NCBI GenBank assembly: GCA_030264375.1
Contig: JASCQW010000162.1
Coordinates: 45,106,001-45,170,000, forward strand
From: Carcharhinus longimanus
Taxonomy: Eukaryota
Direction: 5' to 3'
Length of the DNA: 64,000 bases
The notes beneath the pieces were generated by a model. The model ran no database searches. It was not told the origin of the DNA and worked only from the letters and a program-made list of their open reading frames with translations. Position 1 is the first letter of the stretch. Each line of letters starts with the position of its first letter. The translations under genes and the position numbers were made by a program. Shown one piece after another: positions 6,690 to 53,629 of this stretch.

Positions 6690-9530
6690 CAGGATTGACA
6701 GTGTTGTACTAAATGTGTGCAGTATTCCGAACAAGGTAAATGAGGTTGTTGTGCACACTGAAATTGGCTGGTATGATGTTTTAAACATCACAGAGACATG
6801 GCTGCGAGGAGATTCCAAGGATATGTGTCCTATGGGAAGGACAGGCTGATGGGCAAATGGGGTGGGGTTGCATTGTTAGTAAAGAATGAAGTTAAATCAA
6901 TAGCAAGAAGCAGTATAGGATCAGAAAGCATAGAATCTCTGTGGGTAGAGTTGAGGAATTGCAAAGGTAAAAAAACCTTGATGGGAATTATGTACAGGTC
7001 CCCTAGCAGTAGTCAGGATGTGGGGCAGAAAATAAATCAGGCAACATAAAAAATGCAATATTACAATAATCATGGGGTACTTCAATATGTAGATGGACTG
7101 GGAAAATCAGGAAGGTAGTGGATCCCAAGAAAAGGAATTTGTGGAATATCTAAGACTTTTTTTGGAGCGGCTTGTGACAGAGTCTACTAGGGAACAGGCA
7201 ATTCTGGATTTGGTGATGTGTAATGAGGCAGACTTGATTAGGGAACTTAAGGTGAAAGAACCCTGAGGGATCAGTGACCACAGTACGATAGAATTTACCC
7301 TGTAGTTTGAGGGGGAGAAGCTGGAATCAGATTTAATGGATTATAATTAAATAAGGGTAACTACAAAGACATGAGGGAGGAGCTGGCCAGAGTAGATTGG
7401 AAAGGGAGCCTAGTAGGGAAGACAGCAGAACAGCAATGGCTAGAGTTTTTGAGAGTTATTTGGGAGGCATAACAGAAGTTCATCCCAAGGAGGAGAAAAC
7501 ATGCTAAAGGGGAAGACAAGGCATCCATGACTGCTGAGGGAAGTCTAGGACAGCATAAAAGCAAAAGAAAAAGCGTACATTCTAGGACAGCATAAAAGCA
7601 AAAGAAAAAGCGTACAAAGTGACAAGGATTAGTGGGAAGTGAGAGGATTGGGAAGCTTTAAAAGTGAGCAGAGAACAACTAAAAAAGCAATAAGATGGGA
7701 GAACATGAAATATGAGTATAAGCTAGCTAATAATATAAAAGAAGATAGAACTTTTTTTCAATATATGAAAGGTAAGAGATTGGGCCACTGGAAAATGAGG
7801 CTGGAGAAGTAACAATAGGAAACAAAGCAATAGCAGAGGAACTGAATAGTTACATCAGTCTTCATAGTGAAAGTCACCAGTGGGATGTCAGAGCTCCAGG
7901 ATAGTCTGGGGGGACAGGTGAGTGTAATGGCCATCACGAAGGAGAAAATCCAGGGGAATCTGAAAGGTCTGAAAATGGATAATTCACCTGGACCAGATGG
8001 ATTACACGCTAGGGTTCTAAAAGAGATAGCTGAGGAAATTGTGGAGGCATTGGTGTTGATCTTTCAGGAATTACTGGAGGCAGGGAGGGTACTAGAGGAG
8101 TAGAAAGTACCTAATGTAACATCACTGTTTAAGAAGGGTGGGGGGCAGCAGACGGGAAATTATAAGCCAGTTAGCCTGACTTTGGTCATTGGCAAGAATT
8201 TTGAATCCATTATTAAAGATGAGATTGCAGAGTACTTGGAAGTGCATGAGAAAATAAGACTGAGTCAGCATGGCTTTGTCAAGGGGAGGTCATGTCTGGC
8301 AAATCTTTGAGGAAGTAACAAGGAAGTTAGATAAAGGAAACCCAATGGACGTGATTTATTTAGATTTCCAGAAGGCCTTTGACAAGGTACCGCATAGCAG
8401 GCTGTTAAATAAGTTAAGTACCCATGACGTTAAGGGTAAGATCCTGGCATGAATAGAGGATTGGCTGACTGGCAAAAGGCAGAGAGTGGGGATAAAGGAG
8501 TCTTTTTCAGGATGGCAGCTAGTGACTAGTGGTGTGCCTCAGTGCTGGGACCACAACTTTTCACAATATACATTAACGATTTGGAGAAAGGAACTGAAGG
8601 CACTGTTGCTAAGTTNNNNNNNNNNNNNNNNNNNNNNNNNNNNNNNNNNNNNNNNNNNNNNNNNNNNNNNNNNNNNNNNNNNNNNNNNNNNNNNNNNNNN
8701 NNNNNNNNNNNNNNNNNNNNNNNNNNNNNNNNNNNNNNNNNNNNNNNNNNNNNNNNNNNNNNNNNNNNNNNNNNNNNNNNNNNNNNNNNNNNNNNNNNNN
8801 NNNNNNNNNNNNNNNNNNNNNNNNNNNNNNNNNNNNNNNNNNNNNNNNNNNNNNNNNNNNNNNNNNNNNNNNNNNNNNNNNNNNNNNNNNNNNNNNNNNN
8901 NNNNNNNNNNNNNNNNNNNNNNNNNNNNNNNNNNNNNNNNNNNNNNNNNNNNNNNNNNNNNNNNNNNNNNNNNNNNNNNNNNNNNNNNNNNNNNNNNNNN
9001 NNNNNNNNNNNNNNNNNNNNNNNNNNNNNNNNNNNNNNNNNNNNNNNNNNNNNNNNNNNNNNNNNNNNNNNNNNNNNNNNNNNNNNNNNNNNNNNNNNNN
9101 NNNNNNNNNNNNNNNNNNNNNNNNNNNNNNNNNNNNNNNNNNNNNNNNNNNNNNNNNNNNNNNNNNNNNNNNNNNNNNNNNNNNNNNNNNCTGGATAGAG
9201 TGGATGTGGAGAGGACAGTTCCACGAGTAGGAAAAACAAGAACCAGAGGGCACAACCTCAGGTTAAAGTGATAATCCTTTAAAACAAAAATAAGAAGGAA
9301 TTGCTTCAGCCAGAGAGTGGTGAATCTGTTGGACACTTTGCCATAGAAAGCTGTGAAGGTCAGTCATTGAACGTCTTTAAGACAGAGATAGATAGGTTCT
9401 TGATTAATAAGGGGATCAGGGATTATGGGGAAAAGGGAGGAGAATGGGGATGAGAAAAGTATCAGCCATGATTGAATGGCGGAGCAGACTTGATGGGCCG
9501 AGTGGCCGAATTCTGCTCCTATGTCCTATG
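6690..9530 (+). mobile_element. CR1-clade LINE (HER1-like), ORF2 disrupted
   Basis: Endonuclease fragments (GGVALLVK, ESLWVELRN, IMYRSP) and RT motifs (SPGPDGLH, DVIYLDFQKAFDKVPH, LGPQLFTIYINDL). CR1 3' tail GATGGGCCGAGTGGCCGAATTCTGCTCCTATGTCCTATG. Stops, frameshifts and an N gap at 8616-9190. Confidence 0.92.
7544..7616 (+). repeat. Exact 36-bp tandem duplication inside the CR1
   Basis: TCTAGGACAGCATAAAAGCAAAAGAAAAAGCGTACA at 7544-7579 and 7581-7616. Confidence 0.95.
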
Positions 9531-10945: not shown

Positions 10946-11910
10946 GGCTGGATTTCACAAGGGTGGGCACATTATCTGACCACTCTCCCATCCCCTTGCA
11001 AGAAACAGCCGGCAGCTGACGCACCTTTCTTTAAATAAAAAGCCCGCCCTGCAACCGTAACACACCACTAGTGGACTAAACAGGCAGTGAGTGGAACTTT
11101 AGCCTCTCAGTGGGAGAAGGTCCTGCCCACAAGATCTCCCAGCCAAGGGCAGTCATGAAGTGGAAGTGCCAGCGTTGGACCGGGGTAAACACAGTAAGGA
11201 GTCTCACAACACCAGGTTAGAATCCAACAAGTTTATTTGATAGTAAACCCACAAGCTTTCGGGGTTGACTCTCAACTGAAGAAGGGGCAAACCCTGAAAG
11301 CTTGTGGGTTTACTATCAAATAAACTTGTTGGACTCTAGCCTCATGTTGTGAGACTTCTTACTGAGCCAAGGGCAGTACCAGAGCTCAGTGGCAGAAGCT
11401 GCTGGGACGACAAGCAGGCCCATGTAGATCCTGGAACCAGGTAGGTTCCTTGTTTTATAGGGCAAGGACAAATTGGGCAGCTGCTGGAAGGGGGGCAATG
11501 GAGGAGCAGCTCTTGGAAGCTGGGAAAGGAGGAACAAAGATGGGTTACCATTTTAAGGGTGAGGGGGTTACTCCAATTCACAGCACATCCTATGAAGAAT
11601 ACTCCCCAAACCCCCAACTCCCACATCCATGGCCTACCTTTTTAAAAAGACTGCCCACACTAACTGTTTTATGGCATGGGCAGCATATTATTCCAGTCTA
11701 TTGGCCTGGTAACATTCAATTAACCATTAGTTATTTATTTTTTAAAATGCCCTGGTGGGCTGCCTATTTCCAGCACCTCCCAATCCCCCACCTATCATAA
11801 CATAGGGAGAAGCTCGGAAAGGGGTACAAAGATAGTGAACTTGCTACCCTTCAGATTTTACATGCCCCCACCCACTCCCCCAGCGGAGAACATGCCACTA
11901 AAATCCAGCC
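10946..11910. mobile_element. Possible non-autonomous TIR DNA element hosting the Penelope-like insertion
   Basis: 10-bp terminal inverted repeat GGCTGGATTT (10946-10955) / AAATCCAGCC (11901-11910) around a more GC-rich block. Confidence 0.4.
11154..11364. mobile_element. Short palindromic Penelope-like insertion with 13-bp TSD
   Basis: About 73-bp inverted arms at 11192-11264 and 11292-11364. TSD AGCCAAGGGCAGT at 11141-11153 and 11365-11377. Hammerhead-like core at 11276-11303. Confidence 0.75.
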
Positions 11911-13540: not shown

Positions 13541-14898
13541 AGTCCAGGATGTCCCAGATATGCCACCTGAACTTCAGCAAATTAACGCATAAAAGCCTGC
13601 TGACCTGCTCTCCTTTAACAGTTATCCACCCACTTCTGTTTCCAGTTATAAATTGCATGCTGCTGTCTGAATTTGGAGAGGCCGGGATTCTGAAAAATCT
13701 GTTCCCTGATCTGCCAAGTTTAAACAAGTGCATTCTGTAGTATTAAAATATATAAAGAAAGCAAATTAATTTAGCAGACCTGCCAAATTCAACAGCTTAA
13801 ATTGATAAGGGATACCTTTATACATTCCAACGTTAAAAAAAAGCGTAATTAAATTTAAGTCAGAATCTTAACTTGAGATAAGCTTTTGTGAGTCCATTTA
13901 ACTACACAAGATTTTAATTTAGTCGAGATTATCAGTTCGGACAATGGTTTTGCATCAGCCAAAACATCTCCCCCGCTCAGTCTGCAAACATGATCCCGAG
14001 CTTCCTGTCGCCTGTCAAAGGTGATAGCATTGCCATTTTTACACATGGTTCAAAGAAACAAAGTAGTACACCAAGCCAGAATGTTTGGATTCCACTCCTT
14101 TTATGGAGAGCTCATTGTAAATGGGCATGTTTTGTACAGGTTATACATATTGACTAAAAATGAGTGGAAGCTTCATTCAGACCAAAGAATTTGTAGAGGG
14201 AGAATCACCACGAATGAACAATTTACATTGGACTAAAATCAGAGAACGCTGGAAACACTTGGCAGGTCATACCCCAGAGGATGCACTGCCAGAGTGCTCG
14301 CAAGTCCCAATGCAAGAACTCTATGTGAATTGCCTGGAAATTTCAACTTCTGATGGGCAATTCTCCTGCTTCTCTGGGGACCTCCAAAAAAGTTTTCTAC
14401 CCTTGAGTTAGAGTTGAAGATTTCAGAGGGTTCTGACTTACTTACCTGGATAGTTATCCAGGAAATATTAGGAAAAAATTGAGTCTAACCTCTGGGAAAC
14501 TGGACAGCTGGCCCCAAAGCCCAAATGCCCTTCACGGCTCCCTCCCCTCCCCAACCCTCCAACTCACCATGACCTAACCTAACAACCATGCTGCCACCCT
14601 ACCCACCCTGCTACCTGACCCACTTAACTTCATTCACACTCATTCACTAACACATTGAAAGGTTATTTAAATGTCCAAATGTTTTTCAGCTAGTGCTATT
14701 AAAGAGGGGCATAGCTTGGCTTCCCCTGATTACTCTGCATCATGAGGAAGGGCTCCAAGAATAAGTACGCTTCACATTTCTGAAGAGGCCAAGTTTGGAA
14801 GTCCAAGCTAGAAATGCGCAGTTCCATTTTAGTGCAAAAATAAACAGGAGTGGGATAGCAAACCAACGGTGAATGCCACTCCTCAGAAAATTTGGCCC

Positions 14899-15346
14899 AA
14901 GGTTTCAGGTTTGTGATCTCTCATCAGAACTGGCAGTTGTTAAAAAATATAATAGGTCTTGAGCAAATGGAAGATGTTGAAGGGAGATGCAAGTGGGAAG
15001 AAGAACAGAAGGGAAAATCTGTAATAGATTGAAGGCAAGAGAGATTCAGTGACACAAGGTTTTATGGTGCAAGATCTAAAGGAATGGTAACACGTCAAGT
15101 AATGTCCTTTAGAGGAGGTGTGAATGGCAACAAATTGAATAACTGTTGGTTGAAAGGAAACTGACGAAAATCAGAGCGAATCAAGCAAAACAGAAACAGC
15201 AAAGAAAATTAAAAGACAGAAGGTATGCTGACATTATAATCTAATAATGTTGAAATGAACATTGAGTCCAGAAGACTGCGAAGTGCCCAAAGGATGAGAT
15301 ACTGTTCATTGAACTTGTGCTGAGCTTCACTGCAACAATACAGCAG
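14899..15346 (-). mobile_element. Old Penelope-like relic, left (3') part
   Basis: Decayed hammerhead core on the minus strand at 14899-14930. Sequence resumes at 19491 after the TSD. Confidence 0.6.
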
Positions 15347-18300
15347 TCATGATGTGGATGTGCCGGCGTTGGACTGGGGTAAACACGGTAAAAAGTCTGA
15401 CAACACCAGGTTTTAGTCCAACCGATTGGACTAAACCTGTTGGACTAAAACCTGGTGTTGTCAGACTTTTTACAGGATATACTTGCCAGCTCTCCTGCTG
15501 AGACCTGAACAGAGCCTGAAGCATAGAAGTTAAATGTGCCAGTTACCTTCACAGCCACTGGCAGGGATTGGGAGTTGATGGATTATGGCTCCCAGTTGTT
15601 GCTGCGTAGTGTGAAAAATGTCATTCATAACATCATGGCTCAACCTAAGTTTTCTTCAGCACAGGTTTCCTGTAGTGTCCTCAATCTGTGACCTCCCCCA
15701 GAGGGCAGCCTCTCTGCCATAGTGAAAATGTGGATCTATGTGTAACAATCTCAAAATAAGGATTCAGCCAACTAGGACTTGGATGAGGGGGAAATTTCTT
15801 CATTCAAATAATTTAGAATTCTTAACCCATATCACATTGGATGCTCATCATATTCAAGTTAGTCCTTGATAATTTTTTGGATATAATGGAATTAAGGGAT
15901 ATGAGGATAAGTATGAGAAGGTGTAGCTGAGATAGGAGACCAGCCATAACGTTTTTGAATGGCAAAGTAGACTCAAGTAGCAAATGGCCTACTCCCATGT
16001 TGTATGTTCTTATGTTCAAATAAAATCTAACACATACCAGTGGAGAAAGAAAGAGAGAGAAAGTGAGGCAAGAGGAAGAAAGTGTGGGAGCTGGCTGTAT
16101 CTGGGAATTGTTTTTGCTGATGTTCCAATGCCAAAAGAGAACTCTATAAGTGGCCTCCTAAATTTAGAAGCTTAGCACTAATTATAAAAAGTTGACCTGT
16201 CCTAGATAAACAAAAAGAGATGCAACCAAGTTTATATCATTATTTATCAATTGGAATTGATGAGGTAGTCTTGCACCTGGGTGCAGCCCAATAAAAGCAT
16301 TACTCTTTCTCAGAAGTGAAAAATATAAATATAAACGGATCATAATTTTATTTTAATGCAATCCAACACAGGATGGAATATGTTGTTCCAACCCTCGCAG
16401 TTTTATACATAAACATTAACATAATGTACTGCCAAGTTGTAAACAAGGGCATTCTTAGCAGTGGGGAAAATTAAATACACATTAATAAAGTAGGAGGTAT
16501 TTGCTCTGCCTTTATTGGTACAAGATTGTAGCTCTCAGTATTGATATTCTCAAACATGTGTGCGATAAACATTGCACCAAAAGTCTGTTTAAAAGCAGCA
16601 GTTTATTAAATTGAGTTTTGAGCTACTTGAATTTTATAAGTAGAGGAAAGGGGACAACTGACAATAATTATAAACATAATCTGAGTTTCAAGTGACAGCA
16701 GAGATGAGCGCCCGATGAGCCTATTGCTCTGAGGGTATTGGGCACATTAGATCATCTGAAGGCTGTAGTTTACCTATTGGCTTTCCATTGCACACTACTC
16801 TCCCTTAAGATGCGGTTCAATCAATGTTAGTGATAGCAAGATTTCATGTATGTACTTTTTGTTGTTGTTTTAACTGAAGTGCTGGCTGATTTTAAATAAA
16901 TAGACTTGCCTGTCTGTTAGAATGAAGGAATTTAATATGAATGAATTGATCATCAATCATTTAGTTACTAATAGTCAGAAGAGTAGATTTTCTAAATGAA
17001 TGCCCCTGGTGCAGAGCTTTGTGTGGGTAGAATGTATATCAGGAAATGGGGTGTGGAGATCAGTGCACCTTGCATGATTTACCATCCATTATAATCAATA
17101 AACGGAAAATTGTGAGTGCACTGATATCCGTGCCCAGATTCCTAATAGCTTACTCCTACGATATTCTGCACCCTCTCCTTTCCTTCTCTCCCATGTACTC
17201 TATGAATGGTATGTTTTGTATGTATAGCACGCAGGAAACTTCTCACTGTATCCCAATACATGTAACAATAATGAATCAAATCAAATCAAATCAAATACTC
17301 TGCACTAGGAATACTGATTTGTAAAAGTTATCTCAAAGAATTTAGTTTAAGGAGCTAATTCTTACCTTGTTGCCAGCAATTTCAGATTTGATTTTATGAC
17401 ACACACTTGTTACTGTTACTTCTGCCTGGTACTTTGTTTTCTAATAAATAAATAACTCCAAGGCAGCTATTTCTAAAAAAGGAACAACATTCATATAAAA
17501 ATTTGTCCTTCAGGTGCTTTTTCAAGTTGCTCTGGATGTGTAGAAGAACATGATAACTAAATGGTAAATACCGCACATTAGCACGAACAGGCAGTTATTT
17601 CTAAACTGTGTCAGTAGTTTTAGTCTGTGGTATGTTGAAGCCGTGGAAGACTTATTCACGCTACCAAATTATGGAATGAGAGAGTATGTCTAGAAATTTT
17701 GAAAACACAACTACTGCTACTTTTTGATGCCGGCATACTGGATTCTGTCCAGATTCCCAGGGTTTTGATAGTTTCCAGTTGGACCAAAATGTTTATTAAA
17801 CCAACTTTGTTAAAATAGCCAAATTTGAGATTCAAGACCCTTGCTAAGAGAACAACGCTGCATGATTCCATAGGTGCTGAATAAACAAAAATAAACTTTA
17901 CTATACAAAGTCAGGAAGATAAAATGATTTACAACGCCTATCTTATATCTCATTTTTAGGGTTAACGTGAGGAATGTGTGAATTAACAGGCAAATTGTGG
18001 TCAACCATAACACACTTCACAATCTGTCAGATTTCTCAACAATCTGCCCAAACTTCAGTGTCCACAGTCTGTGAATCAATCTTGTTGAAACTTTTGCAAG
18101 AAATTCCAGTCTTCACCTCAAAGATCTTGCCTTTGAATTCTCTTCAGATGTTGCTCCAACTTGCATTGCCTCAATGATTACTCACCTCTCAGGGTTTCAA
18201 TGTTGTTTCTGAAGGTTATGTTCCCCTGGATTCGAATGCTGCGCTAAAGCCTTTACTTACTGCTGTAATTTCAGCTCTTTAACAAACTGCTGGCTTCATT

Positions 18301-19490
18301 GAGTTGGCACTGGCCCTGGATTTCTCTGAACTCCAGAACCCAGCTGGACCTAGCTCTATGTAGCTGCCAGGGCTTCTTCTGAGCCTTAGCTACTTTCAGC
18401 ACAGAGCCAGTGATATCTTCGGCCCTTCAAGACTTCTCAGGACTGAACTGCCTCAAGTCTTTAACAGTAGTACCTTTCTTGCCTGGGGACCTCTTCCTCT
18501 GCTCCTCTCTCTTCTTTTCACAGGGAGATCTCCTTTTTCCCTTTGGGACATCTCCCTGCCCCTCTCTCTGTTCCCTGCCTGGTGTTGTTTTCATTTATGG
18601 TGCTCTGCTTCCAATCGCATGATTCTGTTTTCATGCCATTTTCTTTTAGCACAGATACCCTGGACCTACTCTCAATCTGAGGAATTACAAAACATTGCAT
18701 TGTACATGCCCTTTCCTGTCCCATCCTCTGCATATGCAAAATCCCGTGGTGTGCTTAGAGTTGTAGATCCCACAGTTTCTGTTTGCAGTTTCCACTTTGA
18801 ATAAGGTGGCTTTGGATCTCATATCAACTTTTCCCTTGGGAGAGCGAAAGCTTTACGACAGTGAAAATTTTTTTACCCTCGATTTACAATTCCTTTAGAA
18901 GAAATATTTAACATCATAAGCTTATAATAAATAGCTATTACATCATGCACAGATAATCTTTGGATTTGCAAACTTATAAATAGCATAGAGTCATAGAGGT
19001 TTATAGCATGGAAATGGGCTCTTCGGCCCAACTTGTCCATACTGCCTTTTTTTTAAACCCCTAAGCTAGTACCAATTGGTCGAAAATGCGGGCAATTGCT
19101 TCATTATAATGTTCTTTTAAAGCACCTGATGATCCTACAAAACATATCTTGAGACATAGGACTAACAAGAATGCATGGAAACAGTGCAACCTGCAAGTTC
19201 CCCTCCACCACCCTAACTTCAGACTCTATCGCCTGCCTTTCCTGCACTGTAGCTGGGTCAAAATCCTGGAACTCCCNNNNNNNNNNNNNNNNNNNNNNNN
19301 NNNNNNNNNNNNNNNNNNNNNNNNNNNNNNNNNNNNNNNNNNNNNNNNNNNNNNNNNNNNNNNNNNNNNNNNNNNNTGTCTGAGGCCAGAACTCTCCATT
19401 CACCTGACGAAGAGGGAAACCTCGAAAGCTTGTGCGTTTACTATCAAATAAATTGGTTGGACTAAAACCTGGCGTTGTCAGACTTTTTAC
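15347..19490. mobile_element. 4.1-kb insertion bounded by young Penelope-like termini, with non-element cargo
   Basis: Perfect 35-bp inverted repeat at 15388-15422 and 15439-15473 at the left end. Same-subfamily terminus at 19376-19490 at the right end. TSD (AC)AATACAGCAG at 15335-15346 and 19489-19500. Confidence 0.7.
19401..19434 (+). ncRNA. Minimal type I hammerhead ribozyme (Penelope-associated)
   Basis: CAC-CTGACGA-A-GAGG-GAAA-CCTC-GAAA-GCTT-GTG: intact CUGANGA/GAAA core, tetraloop-capped stem II, palindromic AGCT stem III, CAC/GTG stem I. Confidence 0.75.
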
Positions 19491-19785
19491 AATACAGCAG
19501 GCCAAGGAAAGAAAGGTTAAAGTAAGAGCAAGGTGGAGAATTAAAATGGCAGGCAACAGGAAGCTCAGTGTCATGTTGGTTGACTGAACAGAGGTGATCT
19601 GTGGAGCAGTCATCCAGACTATGTTGGTGTCCCCAAAGTAAAGGATGATCAATGAATACTGTAGACTAAATTGAAAGAAGCACAAAGTAAATCACTCTTT
19701 CACCTGAAAGGATTGTATGGGGCTTTGGAAAGTGAGAAGGGAGGAGATAAAGTGGTAGATGTTGCATCTCCTGCAGTTGTGTAGA
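19491..19785 (-). mobile_element. Old Penelope-like relic, GIY-YIG endonuclease part
   Basis: Minus-strand peptides NCRRCNIYHFISSLLTFQSPIQSFQVKE and LYFGDTN (degenerate LYIGET) resemble the Cys-rich linker and GIY-YIG motif of Penelope ORFs. Confidence 0.65.
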
Positions 19786-21249
19786 AATATATTTAAGAAG
19801 ACATGATCTATATCCCTGCTGTTTTTAAAAATCCATTCTAACTCCTTGTCCATAAGATTTATTAACAATGCAATAAATATTTTACTCACAGAGGGGACAT
19901 ACAAGTAAATAACTAATTGTCCCGTAATGGATAGTTTAAAAATCCTGGGACTCATTATTGACCAGAAACAGGACTTGAGATTTTGTATTGGGGCCTCAAT
20001 GTCAGCATTAAATGGGGGTCTCAACCTGACACAGGGTGGAGATAAGTAACCCAGCAGTGGTTTTTCCAGAATTGGCCATCAAAGGATGGTGGGTGGATTT
20101 TCAAAGCTGGAGGACCAATTGGACACAATAATGGGAGACTGTGGGGTAGCAGTAATGTCACTGGGCGAGTAATACAGAAGGCCAAGATGGGAACATGTGT
20201 CCACCATGGCTTCTGTTTGAATTTAAATTTAATAAATATATCTAGAATTGAAAGCTAGTCTGGGAAATAACGACCATTAAGGTATCATTGATATTTCACT
20301 GATGTCCTCTGGGGAAGAAATCTGCCAGCTGTACCCAGCGAGATCGACATGTGACTCCAAATCCATAGGTCAACTGTAAACTGTCCTCTGAAATGGCCCA
20401 GCAAGCCATTTATTTCAAATGCAAATAGATTTGGGCAATAAATGCTGGCCTTGAAAGAACAAAGTAAATAAAGTAGTAGTAGGCTGCCTCTTCAGTTAAG
20501 ATGGAGAGAGGGGGGCTCAGAATGGAAAAAAGAATGCCTCAAAATGGAGGTTACCTCTCCCTAATTTTTTAAACTTTTACATAAAAAAATAGCCACAGCA
20601 GCTGGGCCACCATTATAGGGGAAGGCTTAGGGCTGCAGCTGGACAAATGGGATGTCAAAGCCTACCTGAAAAGTAGTCCCTCTCCTCACTGCCAGTCTAG
20701 CACCAGGAGGATGTCAATAGGCAATTGACCTAGTATCCAATGCCTTAGATGGCTGGGGTGGATGTCGGAACCAGCCTGTCAATAGCCTTTATTGGATTTT
20801 CGTTCCCATTAATTATCTGCTTACCACTTGCCTATAGGTAGCCCTATCATTTTCCACCCCAGCTAACCTCCAGGAAAATAGTTCAGAGATGGGATGATGC
20901 TGGCAAGCTGAAACACCAACCAGCAGTGCAAATCTTCGCGCCCAATCAGGGGCTAAAAATACTACCTAGGTTCCCTTTGGGGCAAGTCTCAATATGAAAA
21001 TATGAAAAAATCTAGCCCTTCAGTTTCAAGTTAGTGAATCTGGAATAAGTATTCCTGGACTCTATCTGATTATTGATGCAGGGTGAACATAAGTGTAAAT
21101 GATGCTTGCTTACTTTAAGAAAAGAATTATCGGTTTGTTTAGGTTGGCAGGCATTTCTTTGAATCATGATGAATTTTAACTAGTTTATAACTGGAATCAC
21201 TGCAGTCTTCAAAATTCTAAATAATTATGGAATGATTACTCACATTTAG

Positions 21250-25332: not shown

Positions 25333-26482
25333 TGTGGGGATTCTATGATTCTGTGAACATGTAATATCTTCTGATAACATAATAGTAAAAGGGTCCTTCA
25401 AATCACTGTTAAATTCTTGATTTATGATATTTAAGATCCTATTCTCTGATTTGAAAGGCTATTGATAGTGATGTAGCAATCCTGCATAAAAGTGTAACTG
25501 TATGTGTACATTTTTGTGAAATCAATAAAAAGGTAAAGCAATACTGTTTGTTTTTTTTTCTTTTAAAATGCAGCTACAGAAGTTTTTATTAATGTCCTGT
25601 ACTTTCTATCTATTTTGTTGAGATGATAGTTACTGATTTCAAGATTTGGCAAATTGCCAATGCATAGTCATTTGGCAGCAATACTCAAATGTATACATGT
25701 TGCATTGGTACTCAGTTAAAATGTGATTATATTCACAGATATTAATGCAACTGTCCAGTTCAGTTCCTCTAGGGGAGTAATAGTATTGTCACTAGACTAG
25801 GAATCCAGATACTGGGTTTTGAATTCCACCAAATGTGAATTCCACCAAAGAAAATCAAGAATTGAAACTTCAGTGTTGACATGAAACCACAACAATGGAT
25901 CTTAAATGTCTCCTGAAATGGCTTAGCCAGCCATTCAGTTCAAGGGCAATCAGAGACGGGGAATAAATGCTGACCCAGCCAGCGATGCCCACACCCCATG
26001 AATAAAAAAAGTTCTCAATGTTGTATCAACACTTACAGAACAAAAATATTATAAATGTCAACAAAAATTGAGACATCAAAAAGGTAGATTCAACAATTAG
26101 ATTTTTGCATGATTACCACTGTATTTGCTTCAAAACATTTTTGAACTAAAACAAATTCTAAGCAGTTTAGATATCTCGTTTTCACAGCCATGGTTATTGC
26201 ATCAAGTATTTACAATAGCATGCATGTATTATTTTGTTCCTGGTCTTGGGAAATTTACCCTCCTAAAAAGAGCCAGCATTCAATCTGATCAAATACAAAT
26301 TTAACACACTTAATTGATGAGTATGCAAGTTACATTAATCCTGGAATTACTTTACTGGATTTATTCTATTGATTATCAAATTTCAGAAGTTTTGACCAGT
26401 GGCCTTGTGATTTTTTTTTTACAAAGTTACTGCAAAGTTATGGATTGCTACAGAATGCATCAGCAAACTTTAGAAGGCTATC

Positions 26483-26555
26483 TGGACTGTGTACACCTGA
26501 GAATGTATAATGTAGTACATCACTACATTATGCATTCTCAGGTGTACACAGTCCA
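26483..26555. repeat. 34-bp inverted repeat with 5-nt loop
   Basis: Arms at 26483-26516 and 26522-26555, one mismatch. Confidence 0.95.
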
Positions 26556-27666
26556 TACCCAAACTGATTTGCAGTTATACAACACTCAGACAGTATCTGG
26601 CAAACTACATTGGCTTCACTTAATCAGCACCTATTCTGTTTAGAAACAAATCATTTGTATTTTAGTTTTGGAAGAGGATTTTGACTATTGTATTTCTTCT
26701 TTGATGAAGTACAACTATAATGTAACTCACAATTACTTCTCCTCAGCATATTCCTGCACAAGCATGCCATAGTTACAAATTAGAAAGTGAACATATTACT
26801 TCTGATCATAATTTTAGTAAATGGTGCAGCCAATTGTTAAAGTTCAATATAGCAGTCATTGTTTAAGAAAATAAGTCAAATCTATTTGAACATCAATCAG
26901 AAATTTCCTATGAAATATATTCCTTTTTAAAGTCACTGAACATTATTAATATAACATTATAAACATGAAGTATTAGAAGTAACTGTCAAATTTAACCATC
27001 AAAAGAACACTAACAAGCTCATTAATGTATCCATGATATTACTTCATAGTAAGGCTTACTGAAGCTTCTTTTTGTGGAGAGAACCCTGCTTCAGAGTAAT
27101 GAAACTGGGAGAAAGTAGGAAAGACAGCAATTAGCAAAGGGATCAAGAATAGGGAAGCAATAACACTCCATGGGATTACAAATTCCTCACTATAGGAACA
27201 AATAAAAAAGGGAGGGGAAACATAAGTACCACCACTGGACAAACCGTGAAGTTTAATTAAACAAGGAATTATGGAATTAGAAGCAGTTCTTTCTACTCTG
27301 ACCTTTACTGTGACTTCAGGAAATATTTGCCTTTGTTCGGACGGTGATATATGAACACTTCAGGCCATTATCACAGGGAACTAAACACAGCATGGCATTC
27401 AGGTACATAGCACTTCATCGAGATTTCTTTCACTTCACACAAATTGGCTGATTATGGAACTGCAGCAATTGATATGAACACAAATATGAGTTAACAACTA
27501 CATAAGCAGTGAGCTTTCAAATTATAATTTAAGGGTTGCCTCAAATTTTGAATATTTAATCTTTCACCTAGAAACAAGGCTATTCCTGAGCAAAGTTCAG
27601 AGAAGTCAAAGGAATCAATGGTTCTCAGTGAAAGAAAAGGACGCCAATCTGTTATTTTTGTGTGTT

Positions 27667-29225: not shown

Positions 29226-32200
29226 CTCAGTACTTTCACTATTATGCTCCACCATCACATTGCCTTTCCAGGAAATTTCAGTATAAATTCTCAACAGGAT
29301 GTTAGATACGCAAACAACAAAATTTGCTACACACAATACGAGTATGCTAATCGAGGAAATTCTGGCCCATTGTAGTTAAAATGTTTCAGCCACACTCATT
29401 TGTGTTTGAAGCTACAGAAAGATTATCCACATGGAGTAAGCCTTTGGCTTTGTGGTAGCAATCTGCTTCTGAATCAGAAGGTGAAGGGTTCAAAACCCAT
29501 TTCAGGCTGGAGACAGAATTCTGGGTTAATGTCCAGTGCCATCCAATGGGTGCCGGTAATTTCCCTTTACCACCGTATGGAATCCCAAACACTACCTGCT
29601 GATGTAAAGATGAGTTATGGCTGAGCATTCACACTGTGGCTTGTCAGACTGTTTATTAATCAGCCTGCAAATCCTTCCATTACTCCACGCTATTGTCCAA
29701 GGGAAGCAAGTTAAGATTTTTTAAAAATGACATCTTCTGTATTTCCACAGCTGCTACAGCTTTCAGTTAGTTGTGCCATTCTTAAAATAACAAAACAAAC
29801 TTCAAACAAGATACTCAGTGCCTACTCATGAAGTATGATTTAATCTAACTCGTGGACTTGATTCTTTCCCTTTGATATGCAAGACTAACCCAGTTAGGCA
29901 CATGGTGGGGACTAAAATTTATATTTTGTGGCTTTCCATTGGGCTGTCTGGTTTATCACAATCATTGTGCTTTGTGAATCTTTTTGTCCAGTTTTTGTTT
30001 CTTGTGACTGATTATCAAATATAAATTCAAAACCTAAAAGGCTTTGCTCACTAACAATAAATTTAATTTAATAAATGTTTTTTTAACAATCCAACAAACA
30101 CAAGGTAGTACAATATTTGCAGCTGAAAATGCTGCAAATAAATTGCAGCGTGCCACCAGCCACCTGTTCCCTAAACTAAACCAAACTTCTCATTCTAAAG
30201 AACCAGAACTATCATTTTTACTTGCTTGAAAACTAGGCATGCTTTAGTAACTCTGATACCCCATCACTGGATCAGAGTTAATGACAAATGACACTTTCCT
30301 CTTTGTGGTTCTCAGGATTTTTTGTTGACATATTTGGCTCCTTTTGTTGGGGCCTAAGAAGTGGCCTATGGCAGAAGCCTATTCTGCCAATTTCCACGCT
30401 CCATCTGTGGTATACATCAACAGGCCCTTCCTCACAGTCAGCATTCTGACACCTGCCTGGCACAAAGAGACACTTAAGAGGAATGGAGTAGAGCAGTTGA
30501 GGGCTGGAGAAGGAAACTCGGCAGGGGTTAATCCAGCTCTCTGTTTTAGGAGCCTGTAGCACCTGGAGGTACTCCTGTCATACAATGTTTCTATACATTA
30601 AGCAACTTATTGTATTAAACCTGATCGGCAGTAAATGTTAGTTTAATATGTTACTGGAAACAACATGTATGCACTGCAAAAGGTTCTTTTTTAAGAAGGT
30701 GAATAATCTTTTAACTTGTAACATAGCAAAGGTTTAATTTTTTGTTGTCTATTATTTGGTCTTCTGTTATTTTGTGAGGGGGAAGAGCAGCAGCTTGATA
30801 TAATCTATTGGTGTGCTTTCAAGCTTTTTTAGGCGAGTTTCTCTTCCATGAAGATGCATTTAATTCCTGCCATCCCCCCAACCAACTTTCCCCTCCTCCA
30901 TTTTCCTGACTCTCAGCTCCACAGCAAGGGGTCATTGATAACAAAATAAGCCCCTGACAGCTCTGTGCTAACCAAAATGGTACAAATAAACTCTGACATG
31001 CAACAACTCCCACAGTGGTTTTGCTGTGGGTGGAGAATACAGATTAAATATGAATATAGTAAACAGCAGGAGACAAGTTCAGAAGGTCTAAAGTCAGCCA
31101 GGAGCTCCCCTCAAGCTTTTTGCCTTATTACTGCATACAGGTTGATGGTTAACTGAGAACAAACATTTTTTAAACCAATTTCAATGATTAAATCCAAGTG
31201 CATGTTACTAAAGAGTGCCTTCATCTTTAACCTATGTCCGTGAAAGACCTTTTTGGTGCTGTCTGTTTCATGCTGACTGCTCTTTGGAAGTGTACATGAT
31301 TAAAAGCACCCACATATTTAATTCAAGAGAATTCACTTCCAATCAGATAATTTTAACAAATTACTTTACAGCACAGTTGTATTTCTTTGGGAAACTCAAA
31401 ATATTGCAGAACTGTATGTGATGTTACTGCGACTATATTTTGACAGACATGCAGTTTCTTTTTAAAAGTCCATCCAATTGTGTAAAATGATATCAGCCAA
31501 AAAACTACCTAGGTTTACCACCTTCAGCTGTCTTTTTGACATTCTGTTTAAATGTAAATTCATTTCTATCTCTTGAATTAAGATGGTCAAGATGTAAGGA
31601 TTTTTCAGAAAAAGATTCAGGAGCAATAGAAAATCACCATTTCAAAGTTTATATTGCATCAAACGAAAAAATTTCAAATTACATCTTCATTTATCTACGT
31701 GTAACACCTTAAAAAGCAAACTTTTAAAATCATTTTAACCAAATATATTAACCCTAGCAAACACAGTTAAACAAGTATGCTTAGAATATGGCACTTGTAT
31801 CTTTGTGAAGAAAATCCAACCTGATCAATACAATTAGAAACAGTTGCTTGCATTGTGAGGTGTAGTGCTGGCAAAGGAAACATCGAAGATAAAGGCAGCA
31901 GTCATTTTCGTTTATATAACTATCAAGCGAAGGGCCTTTACAGACCATATGTGCTCCAAGCAGTGTTCCTATCATAGGCCAGCCACGAAGTCTTTTGGGA
32001 GCTGTTAATGAACTGGGTAATTGAGCTGTCGACATGTGTTACCAAAACAAAACAAAAGGGAAAAAAGACAAATGAACAATTTATTTGCAGATCAGACCAG
32101 TTTAGCTTCTCAGCAAATGGGACAAAGTGATTGACTGAGTACATATAACAGTACATTGAAGTAAAGCAGATGTACTCATGGCAATGATGGGATGACAGCT

Positions 32201-53494: not shown

Positions 53495-53629
53495 CCTTGT
53501 TTGCCAGAATGCCGTCTATGCTGTGTTTGGTCTTTTTATCTCCCTCTTCATATTCCTTTCTTTCACATTCCTCCTCTTCGTCTTCTTTCTTACCGAATCT
53601 ACTCCTTAGAATACGGCTTATTGAGCTCA
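53495..53629 (-). CDS. pax3: Pax3 exon 4, end of paired domain and octapeptide
   Basis: Acceptor AAAAAG|TG. Translates (V)[44 protein letters not shown], with octapeptide HSIDGILA. Donor AAGG|GTAAGA; 135 nt. Confidence 0.96.

Follow-up and report, generated by a model that had tools for sequence, protein, structure and literature searches.

The window, by which we mean the whole 64,000-nucleotide stretch of DNA analyzed here, carries pax3 on the minus strand. The gene was recognized by its paired box (Pfam PF00292), an octapeptide exon near 53525 and a homeobox exon near 2507, all on that strand, and 42 of the 42 aligned homeodomain residues were identical to Pax-3 in PDB 3cmy. A hammerhead motif lies in the long intron between the octapeptide and homeobox exons. 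The initial annotation had described it as antisense to pax3, and this is borne out by the strand of the paired box and the two exons. The motif is intronic, and cleavage of pax3 pre-mRNA by it was rejected because it is antisense; no effect on pax3 is indicated, and at its present locus the hammerhead is probably inert.

The motif belongs to the downstream arm of an insertion in this intron (insertion B), which consists, in order, of an inverted pseudo-LTR (pLTR) with its tail, a short direct pLTR, the cargo, an assembly gap and a ribozyme-bearing direct pLTR. A smaller insertion of the same pLTR family (insertion A) and an older, decayed element into which insertion B had entered complete the features considered here (Table 1).

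Table 1. Coordinates of the hammerhead motif, the two insertions and the older element in the window; offsets are counted from the scissile bond
Feature	Position	Strand	Basis or remark
Insertion A, same pLTR family, no cargo	11154..11364	+	
Insertion A, TSD, 13 bp	11141-11153 and 11365-11377		
Insertion A, inverted arm with tail (I11)	11154-11266		14 nt upstream of bond to +99
Insertion A, direct arm (D11)	11267-11364		37 nt upstream of bond to +61
Sister hammerhead, core intact	11273..11306	+	stem I broken next to core
Decayed hammerhead core, boxes intact, stems broken	14903..14927	-	sense to pax3
Older element, endonuclease frame, continuation across insertion	15257..15346	-	
Left TSD copy	15335..15346	+	TSD test and split host frame
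Insertion B, 4,144 nt including the gap	15347-19490		
Inverted pLTR end (I15)	15347..15427	-	+20 to +100; includes 41-nt tail, 15347-15387
Short direct pLTR end (D15), no ribozyme	15432..15473	+	+18 to +59
Cargo, ~3.8 kb	15476..19276		
Assembly gap, exactly 100 N	19277..19376		ends 24 nt upstream of ribozyme
Downstream direct pLTR (R), no tail	19377..19490	+	5' part lost in gap; gap to +59
Minimal type I hammerhead	19401..19434	+	direct read, descriptor scan, fold, consensus in PMC4209133 supplement
Stem I, 3 bp: CAC and GUG	19401-03 and 19432-34	+	5' arm and 3' arm
Core box CUGACGA, then extra A	19404-19410, 19411	+	
Stem II, 4 bp: GAGG-GAAA-CCUC	19412-19423	+	GAAA loop
GAAA box, then G-C-U-U	19424-19427, 19428-19431	+	
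Scissile bond (predicted), after C-U-U	19431..19432	+	hammerhead numbering
Right TSD copy, 12 bp	19489..19500	+	
Older decayed RT/GIY-YIG element, endonuclease region up to duplicated codons	19489..19793	-	

The hammerhead motif and its class

Direct reading placed every part of the motif where the initial annotation had given it, and the position of the scissile bond agrees as well. The AGCU palindrome runs from A15.1 to U16.1, and position 17 is U19431. When the motif was compared with the Penelope-like element (PLE) class, the CUGANGA and GAAA boxes were present (19404-19410 and 19424-19427), one extra base (A19411) stood between A9 and 10.1, and the G10.1-C11.1 pair was G19412-C19423. The palindromic 15.2-16.2, the lack of a real stem III and the NUH site were likewise all found (AGCU followed by U17), and the location in a pLTR fits, the repeat showing an inverted copy, a tail and a TSD in two insertions. 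At each position tested, the motif agreed with the published consensus of PLE hammerheads (PMC4209133 supplement). The hammerheads described in that paper are alike in the core boxes, the extra base after A9, G10.1-C11.1 and the palindromic 15.2/16.2, and also in the 3-bp stem I, the AU-rich 3' flank and the pLTR location; the turtle (Chrysemys) row of its alignment has the same G-C-U-U junction, with AAAUAAA downstream. U17 is common among them (20 of the 44 readable rows of the supplement, by our own count), and stem II is short here at 4 bp compared with 5-7 bp in most published rows. The searched text of PMC4209133, which gives about 4,000 motifs of this kind for coelacanth and 9,000 for Xenopus, has no shark row, whereas the host of the present motif is, judging by its repeats, probably a cartilaginous fish. 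Thus, the consensus together with the repeat anatomy supports the first assignment, a PLE-type minimal type I hammerhead with palindromic stem III within a pLTR. Judged by its sequence, the motif is an ordinary, standard minimal PLE hammerhead and a member of the class on every feature tested.

Both strands were searched with hammerhead descriptors at three settings, and apart from 19401-19434 no complete minimal type I hammerhead turned up in the window. At least one match was found in 37 of 1000 shuffled windows when stems of ≥2 bp were accepted, in 10 of 1000 when stems I and II had to reach ≥3 bp with G-U allowed, and in 0 of 1000 when stem II needed ≥4 Watson-Crick pairs, all being rates that flatter the motif because the descriptors were composed after it was known. 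Removal of the stem I requirement added one core, at 11276-11303. The bare CUGANGA..GAAA pattern was little enriched, with 10 matches against a shuffle mean of 4.6 and 10 or more in 4 of 100 shuffles. The folding energy of the motif alone was not significant (z -1.57, 14 of 200 shuffles).

A canonical type I hammerhead has a helix I of about 6 bp and contacts between loop 1 and loop 2. The motif was rejected as a canonical, monomer-active ribozyme of this type, since its stem I has 3 bp against the ~6-bp helix I and the hammerhead was absent among the 15 Rfam matches of the window at E ≤ 10. The miRNA and snoRNA matches in the same scan were all far under their gathering scores, and several of them lay on the inverted pLTR arms.

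The class had been said to cleave as dimers, which agrees with PMC4209133 and the review PMC6765202: the former describes a schistosome minimal motif with no cleavage as a monomer and low cleavage as a dimer, and the latter says the same of the class. Hammerhead sites other than GUC are generally slower, according to PMC2238771. In its own context, the pairing probability of stem I was 0.03-0.12, compared with 0.88-0.93 for the motif alone, and that of stem II was 0.96-0.99. Because position 17 is U, the palindrome reaches 6 nt, AAGCUU (19426-19431), and an alternative dimer is favored in the nearest-neighbour model (-18.7 vs -13.1 kcal/mol), which ignores core contacts. The AAGCUU is thus predicted to give the more stable, off-pathway dimer. 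Given the weak stem I in context, this alternative dimer, the non-GUC site and the schistosome result, the activity of the ribozyme is likely to be low.

Two insertions of one pLTR family and an older host element

The repeat family is represented in the window by five arms in two insertions, and the inverted arms hold 38-41 extra nt that are absent from the direct arms. Both insertions have the features of an endonuclease-positive PLE insertion, namely an inverted 5'-truncated pLTR adjoining a direct pLTR, a tail confined to the inverted arms (41 nt in B and 38 nt in A) and a TSD (12 bp in B and 13 bp in A), and insertion B also splits a host frame; an inverted truncated copy and a 30-40-bp tail are described for PLEs in PMC8557442. 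For insertion B, the 12-bp TSD compares with a longest chance match of 10 in 3000 random 51-mers, and its first 2 nt coincide with the last 2 nt of R, so that its length is 10-12 bp. No ORF of the pLTR family was found in the window, the content and length of the 100-N gap being unread, and the PLE assignment therefore rests on the ribozyme, the tail, the inverted arm and the TSD. A second ribozyme or a PLE body could be hidden in the gap, beside the ribozyme.

The two hammerhead copies differ at 6 of 34 positions, and the invariant core bases are untouched. The differences comprise one free position, one loop base, an A-U/G-C compensatory pair in stem II, one wobble, at which the C is kept in the inverted arm of insertion A, and one stem I pair that is broken in the sister copy. 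Covariation, which could be assessed from these two copies only, was not significant: one of the seven pairs was changed on both sides, one was a wobble and one was broken, and 240 of 500 shuffles scored as high. When bacterial and archaeal genomes were scanned with one pattern for the family, 0 stray copies were matched.

In the shared core of 35 positions, the three arms of insertion B differ from each other at 0-1 positions, compared with 6-8 differences from the arms of insertion A. D15 and I15 show no difference and D15 and R one; of the first 7 bases of D15, 3 are different in R. Just above the core, R and the tail-bearing I15 have in common two upstream bases that are absent in D15 and the 11-kb copy, as would be expected if R and I15 both came from one tail-bearing pLTR. 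The I15/D15 junction contains a tandem duplication of 14-15 nt (15426-15454). This duplication and the identity of the two cores (0/35) suggest that D15 could have arisen from I15 by fold-back or slippage instead of being a second donor pLTR. The same junction (15416-15454) can also form a 7-bp hairpin, perfectly paired and with a loop of 4 nt, which along with the duplication suggests fold-back or slippage during joining.

Two further observations concern the ends of the insertions. GCAG(T) stands at the tail-side end of the TSD, against the tail, in both of them (11149-11153 and 15343-15347); with two cases only, it may reflect a preferred target or microhomology to the template RNA. On the minus strand around 15379-15422, the pLTR end can pair with the tail to give an 8-bp stem around the +59 site, and two wobble changes preserve the stem in the 11-kb copy. 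The pLTR end plus tail folded no better than shuffled sequences (z -0.16, 0.43 and 0.45), and for this reason we make no structural claim for the start sites.

The element that received insertion B was traced through its endonuclease frame. A phmmer search with a fragment of the frame gave 6 hits, two of which aligned over the fragment and were used, the other four, with multiple matching stretches, being dropped as compositional. A search with P0006 returned 34 proteins including P0006 itself. Pfam scans of five of these gave GIY-YIG above the cut-off for P0025, a weaker GIY-YIG for P0023 and an RT below the cut-off for P0020, and no family was detected in P0004 and P0006 or in three window fragments of the host endonuclease. 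A word-index protein search found nothing with a 43-aa fragment and nothing with P0006 against longer proteins, and the leads from an Atlas search, all below 0.9, were rejected. When 35 host-family proteins were used as tblastn queries, three (P0004, P0006 and P0037) gave alignments to the left as well as to the right of the insertion, and for all three the identical residue was placed at both TSD copies (213/213, 212/212 and 156/156). Ten of the 35 queries reached the right junction only and one the left junction only. Insertion B splits the older GIY-YIG frame at one codon, which establishes, at the level of sequence, that the whole 15347-19490 block entered the older PLE-type element at one point. 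This one-point entry also supports the scaffolding across the gap.

The decayed core at 14903-14927 is probably the ribozyme of the older host element itself. This pax3-sense remnant has lost its stems, compared with two intact pax3-antisense cores, a comparison in which age is a confounder. A short remnant of a host-type endonuclease region in the opposite orientation was seen at 13966-14017.

The cargo contains 28 listed frames, of which 21 were scanned and 7 were left out as crossing its ends or the gap. No credible Pfam match was found in the 21 frames (best E-values, 0.049-0.093), and none of the 35 host-family proteins matched the cargo by tblastn at E ≤ 0.01, the gap being unread, so that no PLE frame was detected in it. 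There was no long copy of the cargo elsewhere in the window (blastn, E ≤ 0.01), and a relaxed search of the cargo against the window gave 3 weak matches compared with 4 for the reversed control. By nhmmer, one match was obtained, a decayed LINE 3' end (15847-16005 against 9370-9529, E 4e-4). An (AATCA)n tract is present at 17274-17296, and the GC content and CpG ratio resemble those of the flanks. Overall, the cargo looks like ordinary non-coding DNA that came from another place. The plus-strand region at 6777-9363, whose 3' flank matches part of the cargo, has decayed LINE-like endonuclease and RT frames, putatively of a CR1-like family.

Ends of the arms relative to the scissile bond

Inspection of the offsets in Table 1 shows that three of the five arms cross the bond, that two stop 17-19 nt short of it and that none begins or ends there. 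The 3' ends form two clusters ~40 nt apart, at +59, +59 and +61 and at +99 and +100, and none is at 0. In insertion B, the DNA runs unbroken over the bond; its right end lies at +59 and its left, inverted end at +100. The initial annotation had placed the motif at the end of the cargo element, which holds loosely, since the element runs 59 nt past the bond. It had further proposed that cleavage at 19431 could define the end of the mobilized RNA. This part is not supported: the inserted DNA crosses the bond, and 19432-19490 could not have been copied from an RNA whose end was at 19431, so that cleavage probably does not mark the RNA end. The proposal would survive only if the RNA had been cut, re-ligated to a circle and copied for more than one round, which we hold to be doubtful at best.

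For the one PLE reconstituted in vitro, reverse transcription is reported to begin internally, downstream of the ribozyme (PMC11167929). The sections of that paper on the anole element describe that both target strands are cut and extended, that two internal start sites bound the tail and that the protein requires RNA downstream of the start site. They also describe ribozyme core mutants that leave insertion unchanged, cleavage that requires the protein, and RNA-seq data in which no reads end at the cleavage site (PMC11167929). By analogy, the ends of the arms fit internal starts of reverse transcription rather than cleavage ends. As far as the sequence goes, crossing of the bond would also be compatible with an RNA that was cut and re-ligated.

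Origin of insertion B and comparison with known systems

The entry at one site with a TSD of 10-12 bp, the layout of the pLTR arms and cargo, and the continuity across the bond can be read from the DNA directly. The best explanation, and in our judgment a probable one, is that insertion B is a non-autonomous insertion mobilized in trans by a PLE RT/GIY-YIG protein from a read-through RNA, with the ribozyme as an uncut passenger; here we infer the priming, the identity of the template and the uncut state of the ribozyme. The read-through RNA would have consisted of a pLTR end, the cargo and a tail-bearing pLTR, and would have been bound in trans by the PLE protein. After a staggered cut by the endonuclease, both 3' ends would prime at two internal pLTR start sites ~40 nt apart, as in the anole element. 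One target end would prime at the tail site and give the short inverted arm, and the other would prime at +59, from which a long cDNA would extend upstream, copying the uncut ribozyme, the gap region and the cargo before it entered a second pLTR end. The ribozyme lies between the priming site and all of the upstream sequence, and cleavage would separate the two and block cargo transfer. With a two-base stem III, it would need a partner copy or the PLE protein in order to cut, so that a lone copy, being dimer-dependent, would stay mostly uncut and upstream cargo transfer would be permitted. The template RNA was most likely uncut. The tail lengths of 41 and 38 nt, near the published 30-40 nt (PMC8557442), are counted in favor of this explanation; against it, the anole element on which it is modeled is of another family with another spacing (cut at +26, start site at +111-118 of the ORF).

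Two alternatives are also RNA-based. If two hammerheads ~4 kb apart had cut as a dimer and the RNA had been ligated and copied for slightly more than one round, D15 and R would arise as direct repeats. Insertion B would then be the footprint of a circular RNA, cut and re-ligated, that was 4 kb or more in length and included host DNA, a cargo-carrying giant retrozyme in a vertebrate and possibly a family member. The single difference between D15 and R in the shared core and the position of D15, all of which lies on the downstream side of the bond (+18 to +59), are in accordance with such a circle, and more-than-unit copying of circles is proposed in PMC4209133. However, cargo and not tail would follow +59 in a circle, yet the inverted arm bears the tail; D15 is unlike R at its very start, as noted above; ligation by minimal hammerheads is much poorer than that by full ones (PMC6155905); and both the RNA required downstream of the start site and the lack of reads ending at the cleavage site in the anole element (PMC11167929) speak against it. 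We regard circularization as decidedly unlikely, and the corresponding giant retrozyme has the same low probability. In the other alternative, which is unlikely too, a single event with an uncut ribozyme would have produced the whole structure by template jumps, the cDNA running from +59 through the ribozyme onto an unrelated cellular RNA or DNA, re-entering a pLTR at +59 and ending in the inverted arm. This would make R, D15 and I15 one subfamily (0-1 differences in 35, compared with 6-8 to the 11-kb copy) without two donor copies, and self-priming with template jumps has been proposed for PLEs (PMC3846280), but two jumps are needed, the right cargo/pLTR junction is hidden in the gap, and neither a poly(A) nor a splice signature was noticed.

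An origin at the DNA level is still less probable. A small insertion like that at 11154-11364 would have come first, and the cargo and a second pLTR would have been added later by ectopic recombination or by another PLE inserting precisely at its 3' end. The segment 15347-15473 by itself indeed has the anatomy of the 11-kb insertion, and new PLE copies tend to land within or beside existing ones (PMC6765202), as insertion B did within the older PLE. Nevertheless, there is no second TSD at 15473, where the best match was 7 bp and within chance, the homology available for recombination is only ~42 bp, and the three arms are so nearly identical that a single time of origin is favored. That the motif is a chance match, or a regulatory ribozyme adopted by the host on a pax3 antisense RNA, is extremely improbable. 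The modest folding z, the missing Rfam match and the intact core beside the decayed pax3-sense remnant at 14903-14927 could be taken to point that way, but descriptor matches were found in only 0-10 of 1000 shuffles and a homologous core lies at the same place in the second insertion. In addition, the insertion looks young, so that an intact core needs no selection, and the loop-loop elements of monomer-active type I ribozymes are absent.

A close likeness to insertion B was found in Pen3a_Av of Adineta vaga, which according to PMC3846280 also has two direct pLTRs and one inverted pLTR, a TSD and ~4 kb of cargo without internal PLE sequence, non-coding cases being mentioned there. Insertion B differs in being in a vertebrate and in having a cargo without a recognizable gene, and its empty site is deduced from the split endonuclease frame, whereas that of Pen3a_Av was seen on an allele. 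Poseidon PAc of Anolis carolinensis (PMC11167929) resembles the present insertions in having the ribozyme upstream of two internal starts that delimit the tail and insertions that end at these starts, and differs in spacing, which is 59-61 and 99-100 nt in insertions A and B, and in target, the tail-side targets not being AT-rich here. Animal non-LTR retrozymes (PMC7229834; bioRxiv 10.64898/2026.07.22.740005) are, like insertion B, non-coding, PLE-derived and equipped with a type I hammerhead. They are described as tandem arrays in which every unit, of 51-972 bp, has its own ribozyme, whereas insertion B has one sequenced ribozyme in at least 4 kb. A non-LTR retrozyme array was rejected, as no such array was found in 14000-21000 and the window has one complete ribozyme, the gap being unread. 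The Terminon/Athena elements of rotifers (PMC6431247) share with insertion B a hammerhead near the 3' end and the capture of host DNA, but they attach to telomeres via telomeric repeats beside the ribozyme, whereas insertion B has a TSD and lies inside a gene. An end of this type was rejected because 19432-19490 contains no reverse-complement telomeric repeats.

According to PMC4350176, every vertebrate lineage examined has PLEs. Derivatives of PLEs that bear hammerheads are described for one chondrichthyan genome in bioRxiv 10.64898/2026.07.22.740005, whose supplements may list the present family, and cargo capture by PLEs is documented in rotifer (PMC3846280; PMC6431247). A search by title and abstract start, which covered few subscription papers, found no report of cargo capture by a vertebrate PLE, and our literature search, on PLE transduction and on shark PLE ribozymes, found no description of the present pLTR family; both results are weak evidence of absence. 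The role of the hammerhead in endonuclease-positive PLEs is described as still unclear in PMC8557442, and the value of insertion B lies in its context, which bears on the question of whether PLE hammerheads are active ahead of reverse transcription. It is well bounded, and ~3.8 kb of DNA lying upstream of an intact core came in with it. This agrees with an uncut template and suggests that transduction of upstream sequence would be restricted by cleavage. If the circular RNA set out above were real, the circular step that has long been suggested for PLEs would have direct evidence in its favor, and PLE hammerheads would be gates deciding the transduction of flanking host DNA.

Elsewhere in the window, Rfam gave a weak match to the CPEB3 ribozyme at 29601-29678 on the plus strand (21.8 bits compared with a gathering score of 35, E 0.28), which is probably due to chance. 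A near-perfect inverted repeat at 26467-26569 was matched by several miRNA models below threshold.
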